From NCBI GenBank assembly GCA_048941015.1, contig JBHLNZ010000025.1:1591-44452 (forward strand): a stretch of 42,862 bases of DNA. Reading direction: 5' to 3'. Origin of the DNA: Promethearchaeota archaeon. GTDB lineage: Archaea; Asgardarchaeota; Lokiarchaeia; Sigyniarchaeales; SOKP01. The notes under the pieces are model-generated. The model did no database searches and was not told where the DNA came from. It saw only the letters and a program-made list of their open reading frames with translations. A program made the position numbers and the translations under genes. Shown piece after piece: positions 32,625 to 42,862 of the stretch. The stretch's first letter is position 1. Each line of letters opens with the position of its first letter.

Positions 32625-33728
32625 ATGTCAAATGAAATTGTTTATGTTGAAGCTCGGATCTTAGAAAATTTTATGAGAGACGTTTTCATTGGATTAGACG
32701 TTCCACCAGATGATGCAAAAATAATAGCAGAAGTCTTGATTACTTCAGATCTTAGAGGAATTGAATCTCATGGAATACAACGGTGTAAAATGTATTATGA
32801 CCGTATAAAAGAAGGGATATACGAAACAAAAACTAAGATCGATGTCATTAAAGATGGACCGACTACTGCTTTATGGGATGGAAATTGCGGTATGGGACAT
32901 GTTATTGCGTACAACGCTATGAAAACTGCAATAGAGAAAGCTCGAAAGTATGGATTAGGTGCAGTAGCCGTTAGAAATTCCACACATTTCGGAATTGCAG
33001 GATATTACTCCCTCATGGCGATAAAGGAAGGAATGATAGGACTAGCAGTAACTAACGCACGTCCCTCTATTCCGCCTACTTTTGGAGTTGAACCAATGTT
33101 AGGAACTAATCCTCTTACTGTTGGAGCTCCTACAGATGAAGGATTTCCATTTCTTATTGATTGTGCAACTTCAATTATACAGAGGGGGAAAGTAGAGGTT
33201 TATAGTAGAATAAATAAATCTTTACCAGAAAATACTGTTATAAATGATAATGGAGAAACTATAACAAATCCCAATAAAATATTAGAAGCAATGCTTCATA
33301 GGAAAGCAGCATTACTACCTTTAGGAGGAAAAGGTGAAGATACTGCTGGTTATAAAGGATATGGGTATGCGACTGTGGTCGAACTTTTATCTGCAGCTTT
33401 ACAAGAGGGAATTTATCTTAGAGATACACTTGGAATTGAAGAAAACGGGCAAAAAAGGCTTAAAGTGGGTCATTTCTTTCTAGCTATGAATACCGATTCT
33501 TTTATTGGACTTAATTCATTTAAGAAGACTGCGGGTAATATTATGAGGGAATTGAGAAGTTCTAAAAAGGATCCTTCAGCAGAAAAAATTTACACAGCAG
33601 GAGAAAAAGAACATTTAGCTGAAAAAGAAAGGAAAAGAATAGGAATTCCCTTGAACGAGAGCCTTCAAATTGATATAAGAGTTATGCAAAAAGAGCTAAA
33701 TCTCAAAGATTATAATTTTCCATTCTAA
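32625..33728 (+). CDS. Ldh_2 family (malate/L-lactate/sulfolactate) oxidoreductase, paralog 1
   Basis: SDLRGIESHG, VRNSTHFGIAGYY, GTNPL, DCATS, GYKGYG, GHFFLA, YTAGEKE. Confidence 0.93.
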   Translation: MSNEIVYVEARILENFMRDVFIGLDVPPDDAKIIAEVLITSDLRGIESHGIQRCKMYYDRIKEGIYETKTKIDVIKDGPTTALWDGNCGMGHVIAYNAMKTAIEKARKYGLGAVAVRNSTHFGIAGYYSLMAIKEGMIGLAVTNARPSIPPTFGVEPMLGTNPLTVGAPTDEGFPFLIDCATSIIQRGKVEVYSRINKSLPENTVINDNGETITNPNKILEAMLHRKAALLPLGGKGEDTAGYKGYGYATVVELLSAALQEGIYLRDTLGIEENGQKRLKVGHFFLAMNTDSFIGLNSFKKTAGNIMRELRSSKKDPSAEKIYTAGEKEHLAEKERKRIGIPLNESLQIDIRVMQKELNLKDYNFPF

Positions 33729-33965
33729 TTACTTAATTATGACAAGAATGTCTAATTAGTCATTCTTTAAATTATTTTGAATATTTTTAATAATAATCCT
33801 ATAATTTTTGCTTTTTACGTCATTTCGGATCGTTTCCTCTTAATAACTATAAATTATCATTGTTAAATTAAGAGTTTCACTAACTTTCACCTTATATTAA
33901 ATAGGATTTTAATTAAATAGAAGGTAATTAAATTATTTACACCAATGATTTTTTTGTGATTTTGA

Positions 33966-35108
33966 ATGCATACTACAAAAGCTAAAGATAATAGTATAAA
34001 AATTTCTAATGAAGAAATTTACTATATCAAACCAAATATTCTTAAATCTTTTATTAAGGACGTTTTCCTCAAACTTGGAGTACCTAAAAAAGATACAGAT
34101 ATTATTGCAGATGTCTTATTAACTTCAGATCTAAGGGGTATTGATTCTCACGGAATCCAAAGATGCAAAATGTATTATGACCGCATAAAGCAAGGAATCT
34201 ACAATCCAAAAACTAAAATAAAAATAGTCAAAGATACTCCTACTACAGCAGTAATAGATGGAGGTTGTGGAATGGGTCCAGTAATTGGTTATTTCTCAAT
34301 GAATTTAGCAATCAAAAAAGCTAAGAAGTATGGTTTAGGTGCTGTTGCTGTCAGAAACTCAACGCATTTTGGAATAGCAGGTTATTATTCCCTTATGGCA
34401 ATAAAAAAAGGCATGATCGGAATTACAACAACAAATGCTAGACCTGCAGTACCACCTACTTTTGGTGTAGAACCTATGCTAGGAACGAATCCTCTGACTG
34501 CTGGTGTTCCTACTGACGAAAAATTTCCCTTTTTAATAGATTGTGCTACATCGATTATACAAAGAGGTAAGGTGGAAGTATACAAAAGAATCCATAAAAC
34601 TTTACCTGATGGAGTAATAATAACTAAAAATGGAATAACTGAAAATAATCCTACAGAAGTATTACATGATCTTGAAGAGAATACTGCAGCTTTATTACCC
34701 TTAGGAGGAGAAGGTGAAAATACTTCTGGTTATAAGGGATATGGGTATGCAACATTAGTAGAAATTTTATCATCTGCTTTACAGAATGGAGTTTTCCTTA
34801 AGGAAACTGCAGGGGTTATTGAAGAAGGTAAGAAAAAGTTAAAAGTTGGACATTTTTTCTTAGTTATTAATATTGAGAATTTTACTCAGTTAAACAAGTT
34901 TAAGATAAATGCTGGAAATATTATGAGATGTTTAAGAAGATCTAAAAAAGCCCCTGGAAGAGATCGTATATATACAGCTGGTGAAAAAGAATATGAAAAT
35001 GAAAAAGAAAGGCGAGAATTAGGTGTACCGCTTAATAAAAGTTTGCAAGATGATATCAAGATAATGCAAACTGAACTCGGTTTAGATAAATATATTTTCC
35101 CTTTTTAA
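33966..35108 (+). CDS. Ldh_2 family oxidoreductase, paralog 2
   Basis: Same motifs as the upstream paralog (SDLRGIDSHG, RNSTHFG, GTNPL, GYKGYG). Confidence 0.93.
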   Translation: MHTTKAKDNSIKISNEEIYYIKPNILKSFIKDVFLKLGVPKKDTDIIADVLLTSDLRGIDSHGIQRCKMYYDRIKQGIYNPKTKIKIVKDTPTTAVIDGGCGMGPVIGYFSMNLAIKKAKKYGLGAVAVRNSTHFGIAGYYSLMAIKKGMIGITTTNARPAVPPTFGVEPMLGTNPLTAGVPTDEKFPFLIDCATSIIQRGKVEVYKRIHKTLPDGVIITKNGITENNPTEVLHDLEENTAALLPLGGEGENTSGYKGYGYATLVEILSSALQNGVFLKETAGVIEEGKKKLKVGHFFLVINIENFTQLNKFKINAGNIMRCLRRSKKAPGRDRIYTAGEKEYENEKERRELGVPLNKSLQDDIKIMQTELGLDKYIFPF

Positions 35109-36571
35109 TGTAATTCCTCTTTATGAAAAATTTCACCGTTGGTTCGACCTTTTAAAGGTTCTGTATGAAAGATTATCTCCTTTAATTCTTCAATATTTAG
35201 TTTTTTCTTTACTTTTTTCTCTAATTTAGTTACAATATTATGAACATAAGAAATATTCAAATCTCCATTAAAAAAAATATGTACTTCCAATACACAGAAA
35301 TCAGAAGTGGACCAGAATTCAAATCCATGATATCCTTTAATTTCTGGCTGTGTTTTAAGAATTTCTTCAAAATTTTTTTTAATTAAATTTAATTCATCTT
35401 CTTCAAATCTCCTACAAGTAAATTGTTGTGTTAAAAGGCTTTCATCTACAGTGCCTGATTCAATATGTGTAATTAAACGAGAAATAGTTGGTTCCTCTTT
35501 TTTCAATTCTTCTTCAAAATTATTACAAATAAGATGGGCTTCATCAAGAGTTAAGTTCTTATCAACTACTATTGTTATTGAAAGAAAATATGTATCTTCA
35601 ATTCTAAATACATTTAAATCTTTGAATTCTAAAATTTCATGAAATTCTGTTTTCATAGAATGAAGTAAATTAATTATTTTATCGCCTAAGGAAATTTCTC
35701 CACTTAGTGGATTCATCTCAATAATAGTTTCAACTTTATAATGTGGGAAATATATTTTAGACATTGACGATATCGCTTTAGTAATATCATTGGCATGGAT
35801 TATTGATATATGATCTTCAACAGAGAGGCGTACATCTATAAATAATTCATTTCCACTACCTCGAACTTTAAGATCCTCGACAGCATTTACATGTTCTAAT
35901 TGGAAAATCTTTTGTTTAATCTCTTCTATAATCAAAGAATTAATAGGATTTACATCAGTTAAATCAATTATACCTTTCTTAAGAAGCATAGCAGCACTGA
36001 AAATGATCCAAATCGAAACAATTATACTAAAGATTGGATCTAAAAAGGTAATTTTAAAGAAGATTACTAGTATAAAGCTAATTAAAACTATAATTGCTCG
36101 TAAAGAATCCTGAAATAAATTTAAACCTTGTACTTGAAGTGATAAAGAATTTCTTTTTTTTCCTTGCCATATCAAAATTCTTGAAAAAACCACATTAATT
36201 GAAAAAGATATGATTAATATTTGAAGTCCAAAATTGGGATTATTTACGCTATATAATTGGTTCATTATGACTTCAATGGCATTTATAATTAGAAAAAAGT
36301 ATGTAGTAATTAGGAATACGCCTTGTATCATAGCGCCAATTGAATCCATTTTAGAATGTCCATACATATGTTCATAATCAGGAGGTTGTAGACTTAGATA
36401 TATTGAATAAATCGTTAAAAACACAAAAACTATATCCGATAAAGTATCTACAGTTTCAGATAAAAAGCTCAAACTGCCTGTTATTAATACTCCAATTAAT
36501 TTTAAAATAGACTGGAGTATAATTATTAAAAATGCAATAATTCCAAACTTGAGTTTAATATTCATTTTCAA
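35105..36571 (-). CDS. Cation diffusion facilitator with three C-terminal dimerisation-type domains
   Basis: TGSLSFLSETVDTLSD, PPDYEHMYGHSKMD, LDPI; 6 TM segments; three CTD-like repeats (..AH.I...E, ending IEMNP / HIES / HTEP). Confidence 0.9.
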   Translation of the reverse strand: MKMNIKLKFGIIAFLIIILQSILKLIGVLITGSLSFLSETVDTLSDIVFVFLTIYSIYLSLQPPDYEHMYGHSKMDSIGAMIQGVFLITTYFFLIINAIEVIMNQLYSVNNPNFGLQILIISFSINVVFSRILIWQGKKRNSLSLQVQGLNLFQDSLRAIIVLISFILVIFFKITFLDPIFSIIVSIWIIFSAAMLLKKGIIDLTDVNPINSLIIEEIKQKIFQLEHVNAVEDLKVRGSGNELFIDVRLSVEDHISIIHANDITKAISSMSKIYFPHYKVETIIEMNPLSGEISLGDKIINLLHSMKTEFHEILEFKDLNVFRIEDTYFLSITIVVDKNLTLDEAHLICNNFEEELKKEEPTISRLITHIESGTVDESLLTQQFTCRRFEEDELNLIKKNFEEILKTQPEIKGYHGFEFWSTSDFCVLEVHIFFNGDLNISYVHNIVTKLEKKVKKKLNIEELKEIIFHTEPLKGRTNGEIFHKEELH

Positions 36572-36664: not shown

Positions 36665-37897
36665 TTACAATTGTCTTGGGACTGTGATTTCGATATCCGA
36701 AATAGGATAAGAAGCACAAGGATGAATATAGTTGAATTTTTTGTCTGCTTCTCTACGCCAATCTGATATGGGACTTATAAAGACTTGACCGGATATGAGC
36801 AAAGAACGACAGAAGCCACACTCACCAGATCTGCATTTTGAAGGAGGAGCAAGGTTAGCTCTTTCCAATGCAACTAAAATAGATTCTATAGCCATAGCAG
36901 GAATCTGTTTTTGTAAATTGCCCATATTAACTTTTAAATTAAAAGTCTTTTCAGCAAGCTCCTGAGGAAAATCTGGAAAATTTAATATATCTTTAATTTC
37001 TCCAAATGCTTCTCTTCTTATCCTTTTTGGAGGTAAATTAAATTTCTGCATTTCTTTTTCAACGAAATTATACATAATCTGAGGTCCACAGATGAAAAAT
37101 GAGCAATCTTCTATATTACAATATTTTTTGATAATATCTGCAGTGATAAAACCTTGTTCACATCCTTCTAAAGAAACCTCTTCACAACTCAATACATATA
37201 TTACTTTAATTTTATCAGGAAATTTCTTTTCATATTCTTTAAATTCACTATAATAGATAATATCATCTTCTTCACTACTACCATATAATAAAGTTAATTT
37301 AGCATCTATAGTCCCTGCAATTATCGCTTTAGCTATAGAACGGAATGGTGTGATTCCGGATCCACCAGCAATCCCTACTATATTTTTTGAATCTCTTAAT
37401 GGTTCATAATAGAAAAATCCTTCAGGACCAGAACTTTCAACTTTAGTACCAACTTTCCAGTTATCAAATATATAATGGGTTAAAAAACCATGCTCTTCCT
37501 TTCGAATTGTGAGCTCATAATATCCATCTAAAGAATCGTTTGGAGAGGATGCAATAGAATAAGGCCTTGTTATCTCTACACCATTAATATTCACTTTAAG
37601 ACTCAAATATTGTCCTGGTCTGAAATAAGCCAATTCCTTTGTATTTAATTCAGGATCCGGTATAACTTTAAATGTTTTAGTTGTTTTGGTTTCTTGTTTT
37701 ATATCACTTATCTTTAAATATTGGCGTTCTGGATGGAGTTTCCTAGCAAGATCATTTATTAAATCTTTTGTAATTGGTTCTGCTGAAGCATTCTCTATTC
37801 GTTTTTTTCGTTCAGGAACTAATTTCGTAAAAGCAAACAAATCCTTTATATTGCTTCTTATAGTAACATTTAATCTTTCTTTTTCATCTTTACTCAC
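36665..37897 (-). CDS. FAD/NAD(P)H-binding (FNR-type) reductase with C-terminal [2Fe-2S] ferredoxin
   Basis: FRPGQYL, RPYSIASS, AGGSGITPF, FICGP, EAFG, CRSGECGFC...C. GTG start overlaps the upstream TGA, with an AGGTGA SD. Confidence 0.93.
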   Translation of the reverse strand: MSKDEKERLNVTIRSNIKDLFAFTKLVPERKKRIENASAEPITKDLINDLARKLHPERQYLKISDIKQETKTTKTFKVIPDPELNTKELAYFRPGQYLSLKVNINGVEITRPYSIASSPNDSLDGYYELTIRKEEHGFLTHYIFDNWKVGTKVESSGPEGFFYYEPLRDSKNIVGIAGGSGITPFRSIAKAIIAGTIDAKLTLLYGSSEEDDIIYYSEFKEYEKKFPDKIKVIYVLSCEEVSLEGCEQGFITADIIKKYCNIEDCSFFICGPQIMYNFVEKEMQKFNLPPKRIRREAFGEIKDILNFPDFPQELAEKTFNLKVNMGNLQKQIPAMAIESILVALERANLAPPSKCRSGECGFCRSLLISGQVFISPISDWRREADKKFNYIHPCASYPISDIEITVPRQL

Positions 37898-39465
37898 TGT
37901 AAATCACCTTTTCTACTTAATTTTTCTAAAGTTAGAAGTGCTGAAGTATATCCGTCAGACATAGCACTACTATATCCATGAACCCTTCTTCCAAAACCTC
38001 CAGCAAATTCAAGTCCTTTTATATAGACGTCTTGCCCCATCATCATTAATCTGGGAATTAAAGAATCCCAAGATTCCGGTTCATAACCATATATGATACC
38101 ATTATATGTTCTTGTAAATCTTGCGTAAGTTACAGGCGTAGATACTTCGATTTCTTCTATATGATCTCTTATCGAAGAGCCCGTTGCTTGTTCAAAATCT
38201 ATAATTAATTTTTCAGCTATCTCATTTTTAATTCTAAAATAATCTTCTGGTTTAATATTTTCCCATGCTTCTGGCTTAAAAAGTGTTGTTATGTACATTA
38301 TACAGGTTCCTGGAGGAGAACAATCAGGATTTACAACATTTAGAACTACTGTAGCTTGACCTGCAGGTGCTTTAAGTTCTTTCCAAGAATCGTATATTTT
38401 TTCAGTTTTCATTGAATCCATAATGAAATAACTATATTCTTTAAGCCCTAATTTTTCAGCACTAACATCCAACCCTAAATATACACAGAAACCTGATAAT
38501 CCATGAATTCTTGCATTTACATCTTTAAATGCAATCTCAGGAACTTCTGATTTTGGGTAAATTAGTTTATTATAAGTTAATGTCGGAGAAGCATTACAGA
38601 TTACATAATTAGTTTTGATTCTATCTCCCTTTGATGTTTCAATACCGATAACGTTTCCATTCTCTACAAGGATCTTTTCTACTCTGGTGTTATATTCAAT
38701 TTTGCCTCCATATTCTCTAATTTTAACATCAAAAGCAGTAGTATACTCATGAGAACGGTTTTTTGGAATATAACCTCCACGTAATATATAAACTAAAACC
38801 ATAGAAGCATAAATTGTAAAGTTTATTCTACTCATAGGGAGTCCCATATAAGCCCAATATCCATTGAGAATGTTTTGTGCTCTGTCAGGGATTCCTAAAG
38901 CGTCTTCAACTTCCTTAGTAGAATATGCTGCAGTTTTAAGAAAATTTGAGTATTCCTTCATCAAAATCCCCTGATCGGGCTTTCCATGTGTTTTTCCAAA
39001 ATATTCGAATGCTTCCCTAATTTCTTGAGCAACATCAAAGAATTTTTGAACCGATGCTTTACTACCAGGTACTTCTTTTTCAATAGTATCAATAAAATCC
39101 TCTATACCAAATGGTAAAGTAATATCTAATTTATCTTCTGGATTAGTTAAAATTAGTCTGTATGCCTCTGGTACGCGTAAAAATTCAGCATCTAAATTAA
39201 ATTTATCTTCTAGCATTGTTCTAATACTTCCTTTATTTTCTTGAGGACCATAACTAGCTAATTCATGGAGGGATGTCTCAAATTCAAACCTACCCCTTAC
39301 AAAACTAGAAGCAAATCCACCCGGTAAGTTATGTTGTTCTAAAAGTAAAACCTTTTTTCCAGCTTTAGCTATTTGGGCTGTAGCTGCTAATCCTCCATTA
39401 CCAGCACCGATGACTACAACATCATAAGTATCTATTATTTCTTTTTCTTTATTTTCAGCAAACAT
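37894..39465 (-). CDS. Phytoene desaturase / retinol saturase-like (COG1233) FAD oxidoreductase
   Basis: DVVVIGAGNGGL, EQHNLPGG..F.RG.FEFE, TPVTYARFT..GIIYG, GLEFAG. Start placed at ATG 39465 (GGGGT SD-like upstream) instead of the track's 39525. Confidence 0.88.
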   Translation of the reverse strand: MFAENKEKEIIDTYDVVVIGAGNGGLAATAQIAKAGKKVLLLEQHNLPGGFASSFVRGRFEFETSLHELASYGPQENKGSIRTMLEDKFNLDAEFLRVPEAYRLILTNPEDKLDITLPFGIEDFIDTIEKEVPGSKASVQKFFDVAQEIREAFEYFGKTHGKPDQGILMKEYSNFLKTAAYSTKEVEDALGIPDRAQNILNGYWAYMGLPMSRINFTIYASMVLVYILRGGYIPKNRSHEYTTAFDVKIREYGGKIEYNTRVEKILVENGNVIGIETSKGDRIKTNYVICNASPTLTYNKLIYPKSEVPEIAFKDVNARIHGLSGFCVYLGLDVSAEKLGLKEYSYFIMDSMKTEKIYDSWKELKAPAGQATVVLNVVNPDCSPPGTCIMYITTLFKPEAWENIKPEDYFRIKNEIAEKLIIDFEQATGSSIRDHIEEIEVSTPVTYARFTRTYNGIIYGYEPESWDSLIPRLMMMGQDVYIKGLEFAGGFGRRVHGYSSAMSDGYTSALLTLEKLSRKGDLQ

Positions 39466-39668
39466 TATTATAACCCCTATTTCTTTTACAAAATTTAATA
39501 TTACGTCAATAAATCTATAAAACAATTTATCTTTTTTTTATCCCAGAAATTATTATACTTAATTGTCAATAAAATAAGATCCAATAAAATCGAAATTTTA
39601 ATTTCAATAAACTTAAAATACAGTATTAGTTAATCTATTAATTAATACGATTTTAAAGTGATATCTAA

Positions 39669-42635
39669 ATGAGCGATTTAGAAATAGAAGAAAAAATTGA
39701 AGACTTTAAAAGTCAATTGAATTTATTAGCAATGATTTTTGATACTAGAAGAAAAATGCGAAGGGAAATATATAATGAAAAAACGGGTTTTATTTTTAAT
39801 GCTAAATATCAATTTACAACGAAAGATAATGCTGTTAATGTTTATGTAATTTTTAAGGATGGAAAGATGACTGTTGGCGAAGGGGCTATTGATAATCCTA
39901 ATATTACAATATATTATAAAGATAAGGAAACTTTGGCGCATCTATATGATAAGAGTGCTGAAGAATCTCTAGATTATCTTTTAACTAACGAGATGGGTTA
40001 CACAGGGAATATGTCATACCTCACAAAATTCTCGTATTTAACTTCACTTGTAATGGGCGCTAAAATTAAAGACTATAAAGGCCCTGAAAATCGATTAATC
40101 TATCCCATCGAAGATATTGATAAAGCAAAGAAAAGCAGAAGATTAAAGAATGAAAGTTTAAATCGTAAAATTGATAATGTCCAAGTTTTAGAGGATCCAT
40201 ATTTAGAAAAATATTCAATCGATGATTTTCCACGATTAAAGTATTTAAAGAATAGAAGATTTGCCTTAAAACCCGCAATTTGTGTCGAACGTGCAAAATT
40301 GGTAACAGAATATCATAAAGAGAATGGTTTTGAATTTGATAAACAAGGTAATCCATTTGATCCCGAACTGCGCCAAGCGGGAGCGGTAAATTATATTATG
40401 ACTAATAAGACGCCTATAATACATGAAAAACATCTATTAGCAGGGTCAACTACTACAAAGGAAGTAGGAATCCCTATGTATCCCGAACTTATTGCTACAG
40501 CCATCTGGCCTGAATTGAAAACTATTTGCGATCGTGAACTAAATCCAAATGATATTTCGGATAAAGATGCTGATATTTTAAGTTTAGAAGTCTTCCCTTA
40601 TTGGATGGAGAGGAATGTTAGGGAATATTGTAGAGCTAAATTTAATTATCCTAAATCACAAAAACTTGAAGAAGGGTGGGTTTTCTATTTCATGATGAAA
40701 ACCAACGCTATAAGCCACACAGTTCCGGGATTTCCGATGGTAATTAATGAGGGATTGATTAGTGTTAAAGAAAGAGCAGCTGAAATGGAACTTAAAGCCA
40801 CTTCTTCAGAAAAACAAAATTTTTACAAAGCTGTGCAGATTGCGATTGATGGTATTATAAATTATTCTAACCATTTAAGTGAAGAAGCATTAAGATTAGC
40901 AGAATCTCTAGATCCTAGTGATCCAGAGCAAGCAATTCGCATAAATGAATTAAAGGAAATCTCTAGAATATGTAAAAAAGTACCCGCTAATCCTGCTGAA
41001 ACGTTACGTGAAGCAATTCAATCTATATGGACTAGCTTTGTGTGTTTACATTGTGAAAATGCTAATTCTGCATTATCAATAGGACGATTAGATCAAATGC
41101 TACAACCATTCTTTTTAAAAGAGATAAAAAAGTGTAAGAATGATGAAGAAAGAGAAGAATATATAAAAAAGGCGATTGAACTTGTTGGATCCTTATTTGT
41201 CAGAATTAATGATCATGATCCACTGATGCCAAATGTAGGATGGAAATTATTTGGTGGAAGTTCTTCTGATGACACTGTAACCGTGGGAGGTGTTGATAGG
41301 GCTGGAAAGAATGCTGTGAATGATATGACTTTTATTATTTTAAAAACCAATGAAATGCTTGGATTTCAAGATCCTAATATGAACGCTCGATATTATTCGG
41401 GTATTAATTCAAAAGAATATTTGAGGCGCCTTTGTGAAGTAAATGTAAATATGGGAGCATCTCCCAGCATCCATAATGATAGAACTATGATTGAAGCCCT
41501 AGTCCATGAAGACTTTTCACTTGAAGACGCGAGAGATTGGGGTGCGACTGGATGTGTAGAACCCACAATCATTGGTAAGCATTATGGTCATACTAATTGC
41601 ATGCTTTTAAATCTTGTTGCTCCTTTAGAGATGGCATTGAATAATGGAGTTATACCACTTACTGGAGAACTGGTTGGTATTAATACAGGTGATGTAAGAA
41701 CTTCTTTTCCAACATTCGAAGACTTTCTTAATGCTTATAAAACTCAACTTAAATATTTGGCAGAACAATCAATTGAGATCAATAATTATCTCGGAGAAGC
41801 TCATAAGTATGTACATCCTACACCTTTATTATCTGGATTTTATAAGGGACCATTAGAAAAAGGTATAGACCTCATTCATGGTGGAGCTGTTTATAACACT
41901 TCTGGAGTTGCTTTAGTTGCTTTAACAGATGTAGTTGATAGTTTATTAGTTATAAGAGATTTGGTCTATAAGAAGAAAGAATTCGATTTTGGACAATTAA
42001 TGGATGCTATCCAAAATGACTTTGATAATGGTTATGCCAATATCCTTAAAAAAATAGAGCAAGTACCAAAATTTGGTTCTGGTGAAGATGGAACTCTAGA
42101 ACTGGCTCAAGATTTAGTTGATTTTTGCTATGATATATATAATTCTGCTGAAAATTATAGAGGTGGTAAATATTTGGTTGGTTACTGGTCGATTAGCTAT
42201 CATACAGGATTTGGGATGCTTACAGGAGCTTTACCTTCAGGAAGAAAAAAGGGAAAAGCCTTAACTCCTGGTTTAACACCTGCTCCTGGTACAACCGATA
42301 TCTTATTACCAAGCATTCAAAGTATTGCCTCATTAGATTATTTAAAAATGGCAAATAATGCCTCTTATAATGTTAAATTGGTACCCCATCCAGGAGATAC
42401 GCATGAACAAACCCTTGATCTTTTTACTAGCTATGTCCAAAGCTTTTTTGACTTAAATGGGATGCAATGGCAATTTAATGTAATAACTTCAGATACATTG
42501 AGAGATGCGATGGAAAATCCAGTTGACTATCGTTGGTTATTAGTTCGAGTTTCAGGATATAATGCGTATTTTACAAAATTAAATAAAAATATGCAATTAG
42601 AAATAATTGAACGGCATGAATATAAATCGCATTAA
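39669..42635 (+). CDS. Glycyl radical enzyme (eliminase-type motifs) with N-terminal SCP2-like lipid-binding domain
   Basis: ICVERAKLVTEY, PAETLREAIQSIW, SIGRLDQ, GCVEP (Cys629), ALPSGRK, QWQFNV, LLVRVSGYNAYF (Gly963). N-terminal ~125 aa has the SCP2 pattern. Confidence 0.93.
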   Translation: MSDLEIEEKIEDFKSQLNLLAMIFDTRRKMRREIYNEKTGFIFNAKYQFTTKDNAVNVYVIFKDGKMTVGEGAIDNPNITIYYKDKETLAHLYDKSAEESLDYLLTNEMGYTGNMSYLTKFSYLTSLVMGAKIKDYKGPENRLIYPIEDIDKAKKSRRLKNESLNRKIDNVQVLEDPYLEKYSIDDFPRLKYLKNRRFALKPAICVERAKLVTEYHKENGFEFDKQGNPFDPELRQAGAVNYIMTNKTPIIHEKHLLAGSTTTKEVGIPMYPELIATAIWPELKTICDRELNPNDISDKDADILSLEVFPYWMERNVREYCRAKFNYPKSQKLEEGWVFYFMMKTNAISHTVPGFPMVINEGLISVKERAAEMELKATSSEKQNFYKAVQIAIDGIINYSNHLSEEALRLAESLDPSDPEQAIRINELKEISRICKKVPANPAETLREAIQSIWTSFVCLHCENANSALSIGRLDQMLQPFFLKEIKKCKNDEEREEYIKKAIELVGSLFVRINDHDPLMPNVGWKLFGGSSSDDTVTVGGVDRAGKNAVNDMTFIILKTNEMLGFQDPNMNARYYSGINSKEYLRRLCEVNVNMGASPSIHNDRTMIEALVHEDFSLEDARDWGATGCVEPTIIGKHYGHTNCMLLNLVAPLEMALNNGVIPLTGELVGINTGDVRTSFPTFEDFLNAYKTQLKYLAEQSIEINNYLGEAHKYVHPTPLLSGFYKGPLEKGIDLIHGGAVYNTSGVALVALTDVVDSLLVIRDLVYKKKEFDFGQLMDAIQNDFDNGYANILKKIEQVPKFGSGEDGTLELAQDLVDFCYDIYNSAENYRGGKYLVGYWSISYHTGFGMLTGALPSGRKKGKALTPGLTPAPGTTDILLPSIQSIASLDYLKMANNASYNVKLVPHPGDTHEQTLDLFTSYVQSFFDLNGMQWQFNVITSDTLRDAMENPVDYRWLLVRVSGYNAYFTKLNKNMQLEIIERHEYKSH

Positions 42636-42715
42636 TTTAATTGTTTTTTTAAATTTTAATCTAAATTTTTATTTTTTACATTTTTTATTTTCTTGGATTA
42701 ACAAAATACTTTACT

Positions 42716-42862
42716 ATGATAGAAAAAACATTAATATTAGATATTAAAAGGAATGCATTAGATGATGGACCAGGGATAAGAACACTAGTTTTTTTTAAAG
42801 GTTGTCCACTTTCATGTGTATGGTGTCAAAATCCAGAAGCTAAATCTCCATTTAAAGAGCTA
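42716..42862 (+). CDS. Glycyl-radical enzyme activating enzyme (partial, runs off window end)
   Basis: Not in the ORF track. [41 protein letters not shown] carries the GRE-activase signature DGPGIRT..FxKGCxxxCxxCxNPE. Confidence 0.93.

Follow-up and report, generated by a model that had tools for sequence, protein, structure and literature searches.

What does a glycyl radical enzyme (GRE) do when a predicted lipid-carrier domain is fused to its N-terminus, and what would such an enzyme be used for in an Asgard archaeon? This question is raised by a gene near the end of a 42,862-nucleotide stretch of contig JBHLNZ010000025.1 of a Promethearchaeota archaeon (assembly GCA_048941015.1), in the following referred to as the window; its product, a GRE preceded by an SCP2-like domain, is called SCP2-GRE here (Table 1). 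The gene is not a chance pattern, as full-length homologues with 61–92 % identity are found at 70 genome loci. According to the reading favoured here, which is given a probability of roughly 60 %, SCP2-GRE is the catalytic subunit of an uncharacterised 1,2-eliminase (dehydratase/lyase) of the GRE type which converts an amphiphilic alcohol to an aldehyde and possesses its own SCP2 lipid-carrier domain. In general terms, this oxygen-sensitive radical enzyme probably needs no oxygen to make an aldehyde from a hydrophobic molecule that bears a hydroxyl group.

Translation of the open reading frame (ORF) and Pfam searches confirmed the GRE core that an earlier note on this DNA had described in a protein of 988 amino acids, with Cys629 in a GCVEP and Gly963 in an RVSGY motif. 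The PFL-like family (PF02901) matches residues 190–849 with 516.8 bits (E 1.3e-154) and the Gly_radical family (PF01228) residues 866–969 with 77 bits (E 1.9e-21), both above the Pfam threshold. The Cys loop (G628-C629-V630-E631-P632) as well as the radical loop (R960-V961-S962-G963-Y964) are invariant among 37 aligned homologues, and a segment quoted in the same note, LHCENANSALSIGRLDQ, reads in the translation as stated. A metagenomic fused homologue of 985 amino acids (P0147) has GAMQP in place of GCVEP and GISGY as its glycine loop; since the former lacks both the Cys and the Glu, P0147 may be a catalytically dead paralogue. The N-terminal extension had been estimated at about 125 amino acids. 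Its SCP2 fold was borne out but not its length, because about 189 residues precede the core: the SCP2 domain (about 1–131) and a linker of about 58 amino acids (132–189), which is mostly coil in the predicted model. In the homologue alignment N161, L164, D169, V171, L174, D176, P177, Y178 and L179 of the linker are invariant or nearly so.

The SCP2 fold of the N-terminus had been named beforehand as a point on which the whole proposal would stand or fall, and it is upheld by AlphaFold, Foldseek, VIA-align and profile matches. An AlphaFold2 model of residues 1–131, computed with the alignment of the relatives as input, reached a pLDDT of 87, and almost all Foldseek matches of this model are SCP2 folds (best E 5e-6, 3bn8), among them AF1534, the SCP2 domain of UbiJ, C-terminal domains of alkylsulfatases, the SCP2-like domain of MFE-2 (1ikt) and SCP2 proper. 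With VIA-align the nine best matches (Z 9.4–11.2) are SCP2 proteins or SCP2-like domains; another SCP2 entry, the tenth, has Z 6.9, and unrelated folds begin at Z 5.8. A look-alike search with a protein language model showed weak agreement with SCP2. Furthermore, residues 1–190 were scanned exhaustively with HMMER against 1.8 billion representatives, which yielded 162 relatives, many of them about 150 amino acids long; eight of 39 tested relatives gave a weak match to Pfam SCP2 (PF02036; E ≤ 0.01). When a profile built from 88 relatives was compared with the PDB, the top four matches were SCP2 proteins (E 0.045–0.08), and the alignment runs through the GN(M/L) helix motif. The N-domain profile also matches a protein of 146 amino acids encoded elsewhere in the same genome (E 5e-6), which is a bona fide SCP2 protein (50.7 bits on PF02036; G000:C32:33141-33530; L094:1486-1926, minus strand). 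Taken together, the predicted fold of residues 1–131 is that of SCP2. The canonical SCP2 gene itself adjoins a gene for an M48-type peptidase and is located away from any GRE. In a Desulfobacterales genome (G005) the N-terminal stretch of a molybdopterin oxidoreductase of 990 amino acids with an AhtL-like first domain (L110:8283-11255, plus strand) matches the SCP2-like profile as well (E 2.5e-7), so a carrier-like module of this kind may also be joined to another type of anaerobic enzyme.

Homologues that cover the full length are distributed over both prokaryotic domains. Archaeal hosts are Promethearchaeota (Loki) and Hod-, Thor-, Hermod- and Jord/Freyarchaeia, and the bacterial ones include Desulfobacterales, Desulfosudaceae, Desulfatibacillum, Syntrophomonadaceae, Bacteriovoracaceae and Spirochaetales. 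In a tree of 60 sequences, rooted with outgroups on long branches, the 39 Asgard sequences group together (SH-aLRT 98) in a clade that is nested among bacterial sequences as sister to a Desulfobacterales group. This nesting suggests a transfer from bacteria to Asgard archaea, with Desulfobacterota as the probable donors of the Asgard gene. More distant fused paralogues share 35–48 % identity, with up to three copies in single genomes of Desulfosudaceae and of D. alkenivorans.

The SCP2 module also occurs as a separate protein. In a sample of 251 genomes of Thermodesulfobacteriota, searched for such split forms, 13 contain a stand-alone SCP2-like gene of 150–185 amino acids, which in at least 11 of these 13 genomes is flanked by a GRE of about 805 amino acids and its activase; one of these split-form partners reaches exactly 21.3 bits on PF02036, the Pfam threshold. 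The GREs of the split form are 43–47 % identical to the core of SCP2-GRE. A further locus (L092), on a very short contig, has a GRE directly upstream of a stand-alone SCP2-like gene. When a tree was built from the core columns only, all SCP2-associated GREs fell into one clade (SH-aLRT 100), in which the monophyletic fused forms (SH-aLRT 100) are sister to the split forms (SH-aLRT 99). By this topology the partnership with SCP2 is older than the fusion and was kept throughout the clade, and such retention, fused or split, argues strongly for a functional module. The clade shares the motifs ISHT(V/I)P, E-N-x-N-x-A-L-S-x-GRLDQ, FGGSSSD, GCVEP and YWSxSxH.

The family assignment of the core was based on NCBIfam cut-offs, on bit scores against PDB entries and on the HypD (trans-4-hydroxy-L-proline dehydratase) equivalog of the same genome as a labelled outgroup. 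No NCBIfam equivalog claims the core, all scores being less than half of their cut-offs: 414 of 1100 bits for HypD, 404 of 1050 for CutC, 357 of 1000 for HpsG, 334 of 1000 for HpfG and 375 of 1109 for the PflD type. In the core tree the HypD equivalog and the other paralogues of the genome lie outside the SCP2-associated clade. The core is thus placed outside the characterised GRE families, which was the second point named beforehand. Pyruvate formate-lyase proper was rejected, since the loop has Gly-Cys instead of adjacent Cys-Cys and TIGR01255 (PflB) reaches 126 of the 994 bits of its cut-off. The host genome possesses eight PFL-like matches (L079–L086, on contigs C136, C64, C58, C123, C122, C129 and C112), which is, at a guess, many for an archaeon. 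One of them is the HypD equivalog (L079:1084-3444, minus strand) with 1287 bits against the cut-off of 1100, while the others fit no characterised family.

Among solved structures the closest is PFL2 (PflD) of Archaeoglobus fulgidus (2f3o) with 386 bits over residues 201–982, followed by propanediol dehydratase (PD; 5i2a) with 366 bits. The succinate synthases score far lower, MasD (9o8u) with 197 bits over residues 381–982 only and TutD (4pkc) with 168 bits. PFL2 aligns along the whole core and has GCVE, the ISH motif and E-N-x3-A-(I/L)-S-x-GR(I/L)DQ in common with SCP2-GRE, and its function is likewise unassigned. It differs in its length of 776 amino acids without an SCP2 domain, in a strand ATNQ where SCP2-GRE has SSDD, and in an Asp at the position of Asn643.

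The residues of the core point to the chemistry of an eliminase. In GRE 1,2-eliminases, to which CutC, HypD, IslA, HpsG, PD and glycerol dehydratase (GD) belong, the first strand of the barrel provides the proton donor, a His in GD, PD and HypD and an Asp in CutC. SCP2-GRE has the hallmarks of this group, namely a single Cys with a Glu at +2 (C629-V-E631) and H350 at the position of the first-strand proton donor. Counting residues along the 5i2a alignment, by which the numbering was checked, places H166, C438 and E440 of PD on H350, C629 and E631, and the radical Gly aligns as well. By this alignment SCP2-GRE has the catalytic apparatus of a 1,2-eliminase, although the positions that contact the substrate differ: F344 of PD aligns with D534, which lies inside the invariant GGSSSDDTVTVGG strand, and the Asp found after the Cys loop of GD (B12-independent; 1r8w) and PD is replaced by Asn643. 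The proposal of an eliminase-type enzyme therefore fits in its residues, with Glu631 and His350 in place, and also in its gene neighbourhood.

The activase stands next to the GRE, as had been noted: its ATG at 42716 lies 80 nt 3' of the GRE stop codon, and the motif CPLSCVWC (CX3CX2C) is present. The gene is interrupted by the end of the window, which is also the end of the contig. A second contig of the same assembly (C21) opens with 77 bases identical to window positions 42786–42862 (L008:1-77), so the two contigs can be joined. The joined activase has 299 amino acids and consists, according to Pfam, of a Radical_SAM domain and two ferredoxin-type cluster domains (Fer4). Beyond it on C21 lie two genes for aldehyde:ferredoxin oxidoreductases (AORs; L008:845-2731, minus strand, and L008:2927-4738, plus strand) as well as SnoaL-like, DUF1848 and FAD_binding_4 genes. 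The FAD_binding_4 protein was considered as an alkyl-DHAP synthase and rejected, because it has only weak matches, to relatives of glycolate oxidase and D-lactate dehydrogenase.

In a survey of 71 loci the activase adjoins the GRE in 42. An AOR is encoded at most three genes from the GRE in Asgard lineages, Desulfobacterales, Syntrophomonadaceae and Spirochaetales. Across these four phyla the AORs are non-orthologous, with 27–35 % identity, and they were thus recruited independently. The most widely conserved neighbour is a crotonase-fold protein, present in six of 12 lineage groups, whose main orthologous group shows 38–43 % identity between Asgard archaea and bacteria. At the positions of the two catalytic glutamates of the hydratase PaaF of E. 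coli, the GRE-linked crotonases (L033:14012-14863, L040:3493-4263, L044:7342-8103 and relatives) have Ser/Gly/Ala and Tyr/Ser/Phe, and in the following loop they carry an Asp like the isomerase PaaG. An ordinary enoyl-CoA hydratase was therefore rejected for the main group, and the GRE-linked crotonase is probably not a plain hydratase. In Desulfosudaceae the crotonase is followed by a FadE-like acyl-CoA dehydrogenase (ACAD) gene whose sequence overlaps the start of the GRE. Genes for acyl-CoA synthetases and for TetR regulators are also repeatedly found beside the GRE, and paralogous fused GREs are located in TetR-activase-GRE-SDR clusters. Neither a 3-hydroxyacyl-CoA dehydrogenase nor a thiolase recurs among the annotated neighbour clusters.

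These data can be combined into a possible reaction course. By analogy with its family, the adjacent radical SAM activase would place the radical on Gly963, from where it would move to Cys629, and the resulting thiyl radical would take a hydrogen from the hydroxyl-bearing carbon of the substrate. Glu631 would deprotonate the hydroxyl and His350 would protonate the leaving group (OH, OR or NR3) on the adjacent carbon, as judged from the residues shared with GD and PD, so that an aldehyde would result. The SCP2 domain would bind the hydrophobic tail of the amphiphile and present the polar end of this molecule to the active site in the protein interior. As the gene neighbourhoods suggest, the tungsten-type AOR would convert the aldehyde to an acid, and in several lineages an acyl-CoA synthetase, the PaaG-like crotonase and the FadE-like ACAD would carry the product on as a CoA ester. 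Candidate substrates that fit are ether lipids of the alkylglycerol or archaeol type, long-chain 1,2-diols and long-chain amino alcohols, sphingoid or other; the data single out none of them.

For the proposed role of the carrier domain there are precedents in SdsA1/Pisa1-type alkylsulfatases and in UbiJ, which are among the top structural matches of the N-domain and in which an attached or partnered SCP2-like domain recruits an amphiphilic substrate. Their catalysts are unrelated (a metallo-beta-lactamase fold and the Ubi metabolon, respectively), and the SCP2 domain of the sulfatases is C-terminal. The peroxisomal proteins MFE-2 and SCPx are a second parallel, as SCP2 is fused there to an enzyme of lipid catabolism and the SCP2-GRE family has a crotonase and an ACAD among its gene neighbours; MFE-2 and SCPx are eukaryotic, oxygen-tolerant and non-radical, again with a C-terminal SCP2 domain. 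For the catalytic part the parallel is GD/PD, which share with SCP2-GRE an activase with extra Fe-S clusters and an aldehyde-consuming enzyme encoded nearby. The differences are scores far below the family cut-offs, the added SCP2 domain and neighbours which are AOR and CoA enzymes instead of microcompartment or alcohol/aldehyde dehydrogenase genes.

Several observations weigh against the favoured reading. The SCP2 family of Pfam reaches only 12.7 bits on the single GRE sequence (residues 44–122, E 0.16), below the threshold of 21.3, so structure prediction and profiles were needed to recognise the fold. SCP2-like folds, moreover, are also purely structural in Eis-type acetyltransferases, which are among the Foldseek and VIA-align matches, and the model of the full-length GRE has only moderate confidence (pLDDT 74.6). 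In the active site, two invariant Asp residues (D534 and D535) in one strand and Asn643 in place of the GD/PD Asp suggest that the bound head group may differ from that of any known eliminase. AOR is a multi-copy gene, with 3–17 copies per genome, from which a chance adjacency of about 1–2 % per genome follows. Finally, several loci, such as that of Desulfatibacillum, have uninformative neighbours and no adjacent activase.

The rival that survives best, although unlikely, assumes a small water-soluble substrate and a structural or regulatory SCP2 module, used for activase docking, oligomerisation or as a membrane tether. All characterised GRE eliminases act on small polar substrates, and other GREs have non-catalytic small subunits (gamma of HPAD, beta and gamma of BSS); the Eis-type GNATs and the polar active-site strand (SSSDD) could be read in the same way. 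However, the best structural matches of the domain are lipid-binding SCP2 proteins and substrate-recruiting domains of alkylsulfatases, the neighbours are lipid and CoA enzymes with TetR-type regulators and not small-molecule transporters or microcompartment genes, and the module is retained in fused and split forms across the clade.

A further reading, in which SCP2-GRE is an oxygen-independent ether-lipid lyase, is a somewhat longer shot. The alkyl or isoprenoid tail of an alkylglycerol or archaeol-type lipid would be held in the SCP2 module while a radical elimination takes place across the glycerol head group. Either the alcohol would be released directly, or a 3-alkoxypropanal would be formed, oxidised by the AOR, activated with CoA and split by the crotonase-fold enzyme.

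Improbable, and more so than the two preceding ideas, is a hydroxylated acyl-CoA thioester as substrate, held by SCP2 as in MFE-2 and SCPx and dehydrated or cleaved at a C-C bond by radical chemistry in an unusual beta-oxidation, in place of a head-group elimination that yields an aldehyde. In its favour are the binding of acyl-CoAs by SCP2 domains and the eukaryotic fusions of such domains to enzymes of beta-oxidation, the Foldseek match to 1ikt, the crotonase in half of the lineage groups and the crotonase–ACAD–GRE order of Desulfosudaceae. An acyl-CoA substrate would leave the independently recruited AORs unexplained, however, and the linked crotonase, PaaG-like and without both hydratase glutamates, would not make a hydroxyacyl-CoA; the lack of a recurrent 3-hydroxyacyl-CoA dehydrogenase or thiolase among the annotated neighbour clusters also speaks against it.

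It is less probable again that the enzyme remodels or synthesises the membrane lipids of its own cell, for instance by deoxygenating a glycerol or diol head group, instead of serving catabolism. Several hosts, e.g. Desulfatibacillum, make unusual ether lipids, a polyprenyl synthase adjoins one distant homologue, and the split-type operons hold proteins that are not catabolic enzymes. These operons (L143–L152, Thermodesulfobacteriota) add a Metallophos-like protein of 431 amino acids, a DUF4136 protein and two tandem paralogues of about 320 amino acids without a Pfam family; some also contain DUF6765. On the other side, the genes are distributed patchily and were transferred between domains whose membrane lipids differ, and the TetR control and the AOR, CoA-ligase and ACAD neighbours look catabolic. 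One Asgard subclade (L010, L012, L014, L015, L047 and L063) has a smaller Metallophos gene 3' of the AOR.

The weakest rival, an alkyl- or benzylsuccinate synthase-like enzyme which activates hydrocarbons by addition to fumarate with SCP2 delivering the alkane, has in its favour hosts from alkane- and alkene-degrading lineages (Desulfatibacillum, Desulfosudaceae), adjoining genes of the beta-oxidation type and a cargo that would suit the SCP2 domain, but is very improbable in view of the low MasD and TutD scores compared with PFL2 and PD, the conserved eliminase residues Glu631 and His350, the 80 nt between GRE and activase, which are too short for small-subunit genes, the fact that no conserved small-ORF cluster was seen at the 71 loci (ORFs under 70–80 amino acids were not called), a recurrent AOR for which fumarate addition has no role, and hosts such as Syntrophomonas, Spirochaetales and Bacteriovoracaceae. 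This assignment was proposed in 2021 for five genes of PflD-like GREs from Hermodarchaeota (PMC8163825). As far as the relevant passages of that paper go, these GREs resemble SCP2-GRE in being PflD-like, of the single-Cys type, from an Asgard lineage and of inferred bacterial origin by gene transfer, whereas an SCP2 domain is not mentioned in these passages. As the SCP2-GRE family has members in Hermodarchaeota, the five genes may include some of them; judged by the features listed above, a succinate synthase assignment is not supported for this family.

Table 1 Features of the SCP2-GRE gene and its neighbours in the window
Feature	Position	Strand	Basis
SCP2-fused GRE, P0001, 988 aa	39669..42635	+	ORF translation, Pfam, NCBIfam
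N-terminal SCP2-fold domain (predicted), residues 1-131	39669..40061	+	AlphaFold, Foldseek, VIA-align, profile matches
Linker from SCP2 domain to GRE core, residues 132-189	40062..40235	+	Conserved residues in homologue alignment
PFL-like ten-stranded barrel core, residues 190-849	40236..42215	+	Pfam PF02901, alignment to 5i2a
His350 of GRE core	40716-40718	+	Aligned to propanediol dehydratase H166
GGSSSDDTVTVGG strand of GRE core with D534 and D535		+	5i2a alignment, clade motif conservation
Cys629 of GRE core	41553-41555	+	Aligned to propanediol dehydratase C438
Glu631 of GRE core	41559-41561	+	Aligned to propanediol dehydratase E440
Glycyl radical domain, residues 866-969	42264..42575	+	Pfam PF01228
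Gly963 of glycyl radical domain	42555-42557	+	RVSGY motif
GRE-activating radical SAM enzyme, 5' end (first 49 codons, CX3CX2C)	42716..42862	+	Rest on contig C21, L008:78-827
CrtI/carotenoid-isomerase-like flavoprotein, divergent from GRE	37894..39525	-	Pfam, NCBIfam
FNR-type FAD/NAD(P)-binding reductase with C-terminal [2Fe-2S] ferredoxin domain	36665..37897	-	Overlaps CrtI-like gene by 4 nt

On the other side of the GRE the window encodes a CrtI-like flavoprotein and an FNR-type reductase (Table 1). The pair stands beside the GRE in 18 loci of the Loki/Hod type only, and in three loci (L009, L019 and L029) it is duplicated downstream of the AOR. The link of the CrtI-like gene to the GRE is restricted to these lineages and uncertain; an unsaturated or isoprenoid lipid might be the substrate of the pair. 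Further upstream, the stretches 32625–35108 (plus strand) and 35105–36571 (minus strand) hold two tandem Ldh_2 genes (malate/L-lactate/sulfolactate dehydrogenase family) and an adjoining transporter of the cation-diffusion-facilitator type, which has three ZT_dimer stretches. The Ldh_2 pair and the transporter are kept upstream of the GRE among the closest relatives.

The SCP2-GRE family as such is already present in the sequence databases and is not new there. In full-text literature searches no paper came up that describes a GRE combined with an SCP2 domain or an SCP2 partner. To our knowledge, the characterised GRE eliminases act only on small polar molecules such as glycerol, propanediol, choline, hydroxyproline and isethionate, and we know of no member of the GRE superfamily that cleaves C-O or C-N bonds of water-insoluble substrates by a radical mechanism. 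The SCP2-GREs are probably a clade of GRE eliminases with a lipid-carrier subunit and a new class of substrates: the lipid-carrier module that invariably accompanies the clade, fused or separate, is a pointer to radical cleavage of C-O or C-N bonds in water-insoluble molecules. For the literature this means a correction, since the published assignment of PflD-like GREs from Asgard archaea to the alkylsuccinate synthases is unsupported for this family. If the ether-lipid lyase were true, it would be the first anaerobic route to break membrane ether lipids and would explain how Asgard archaea and sulfate reducers in sediments recycle the ether lipids of archaea and bacteria. The family is abundant in Asgard archaea and Desulfobacterota, and one host, Desulfatibacillum alkenivorans, is in culture. 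For the anaerobic breakdown in sediments of lipids with inert head groups, such as ethers, long-chain diols and amino alcohols, the SCP2-GRE family is a concrete candidate.

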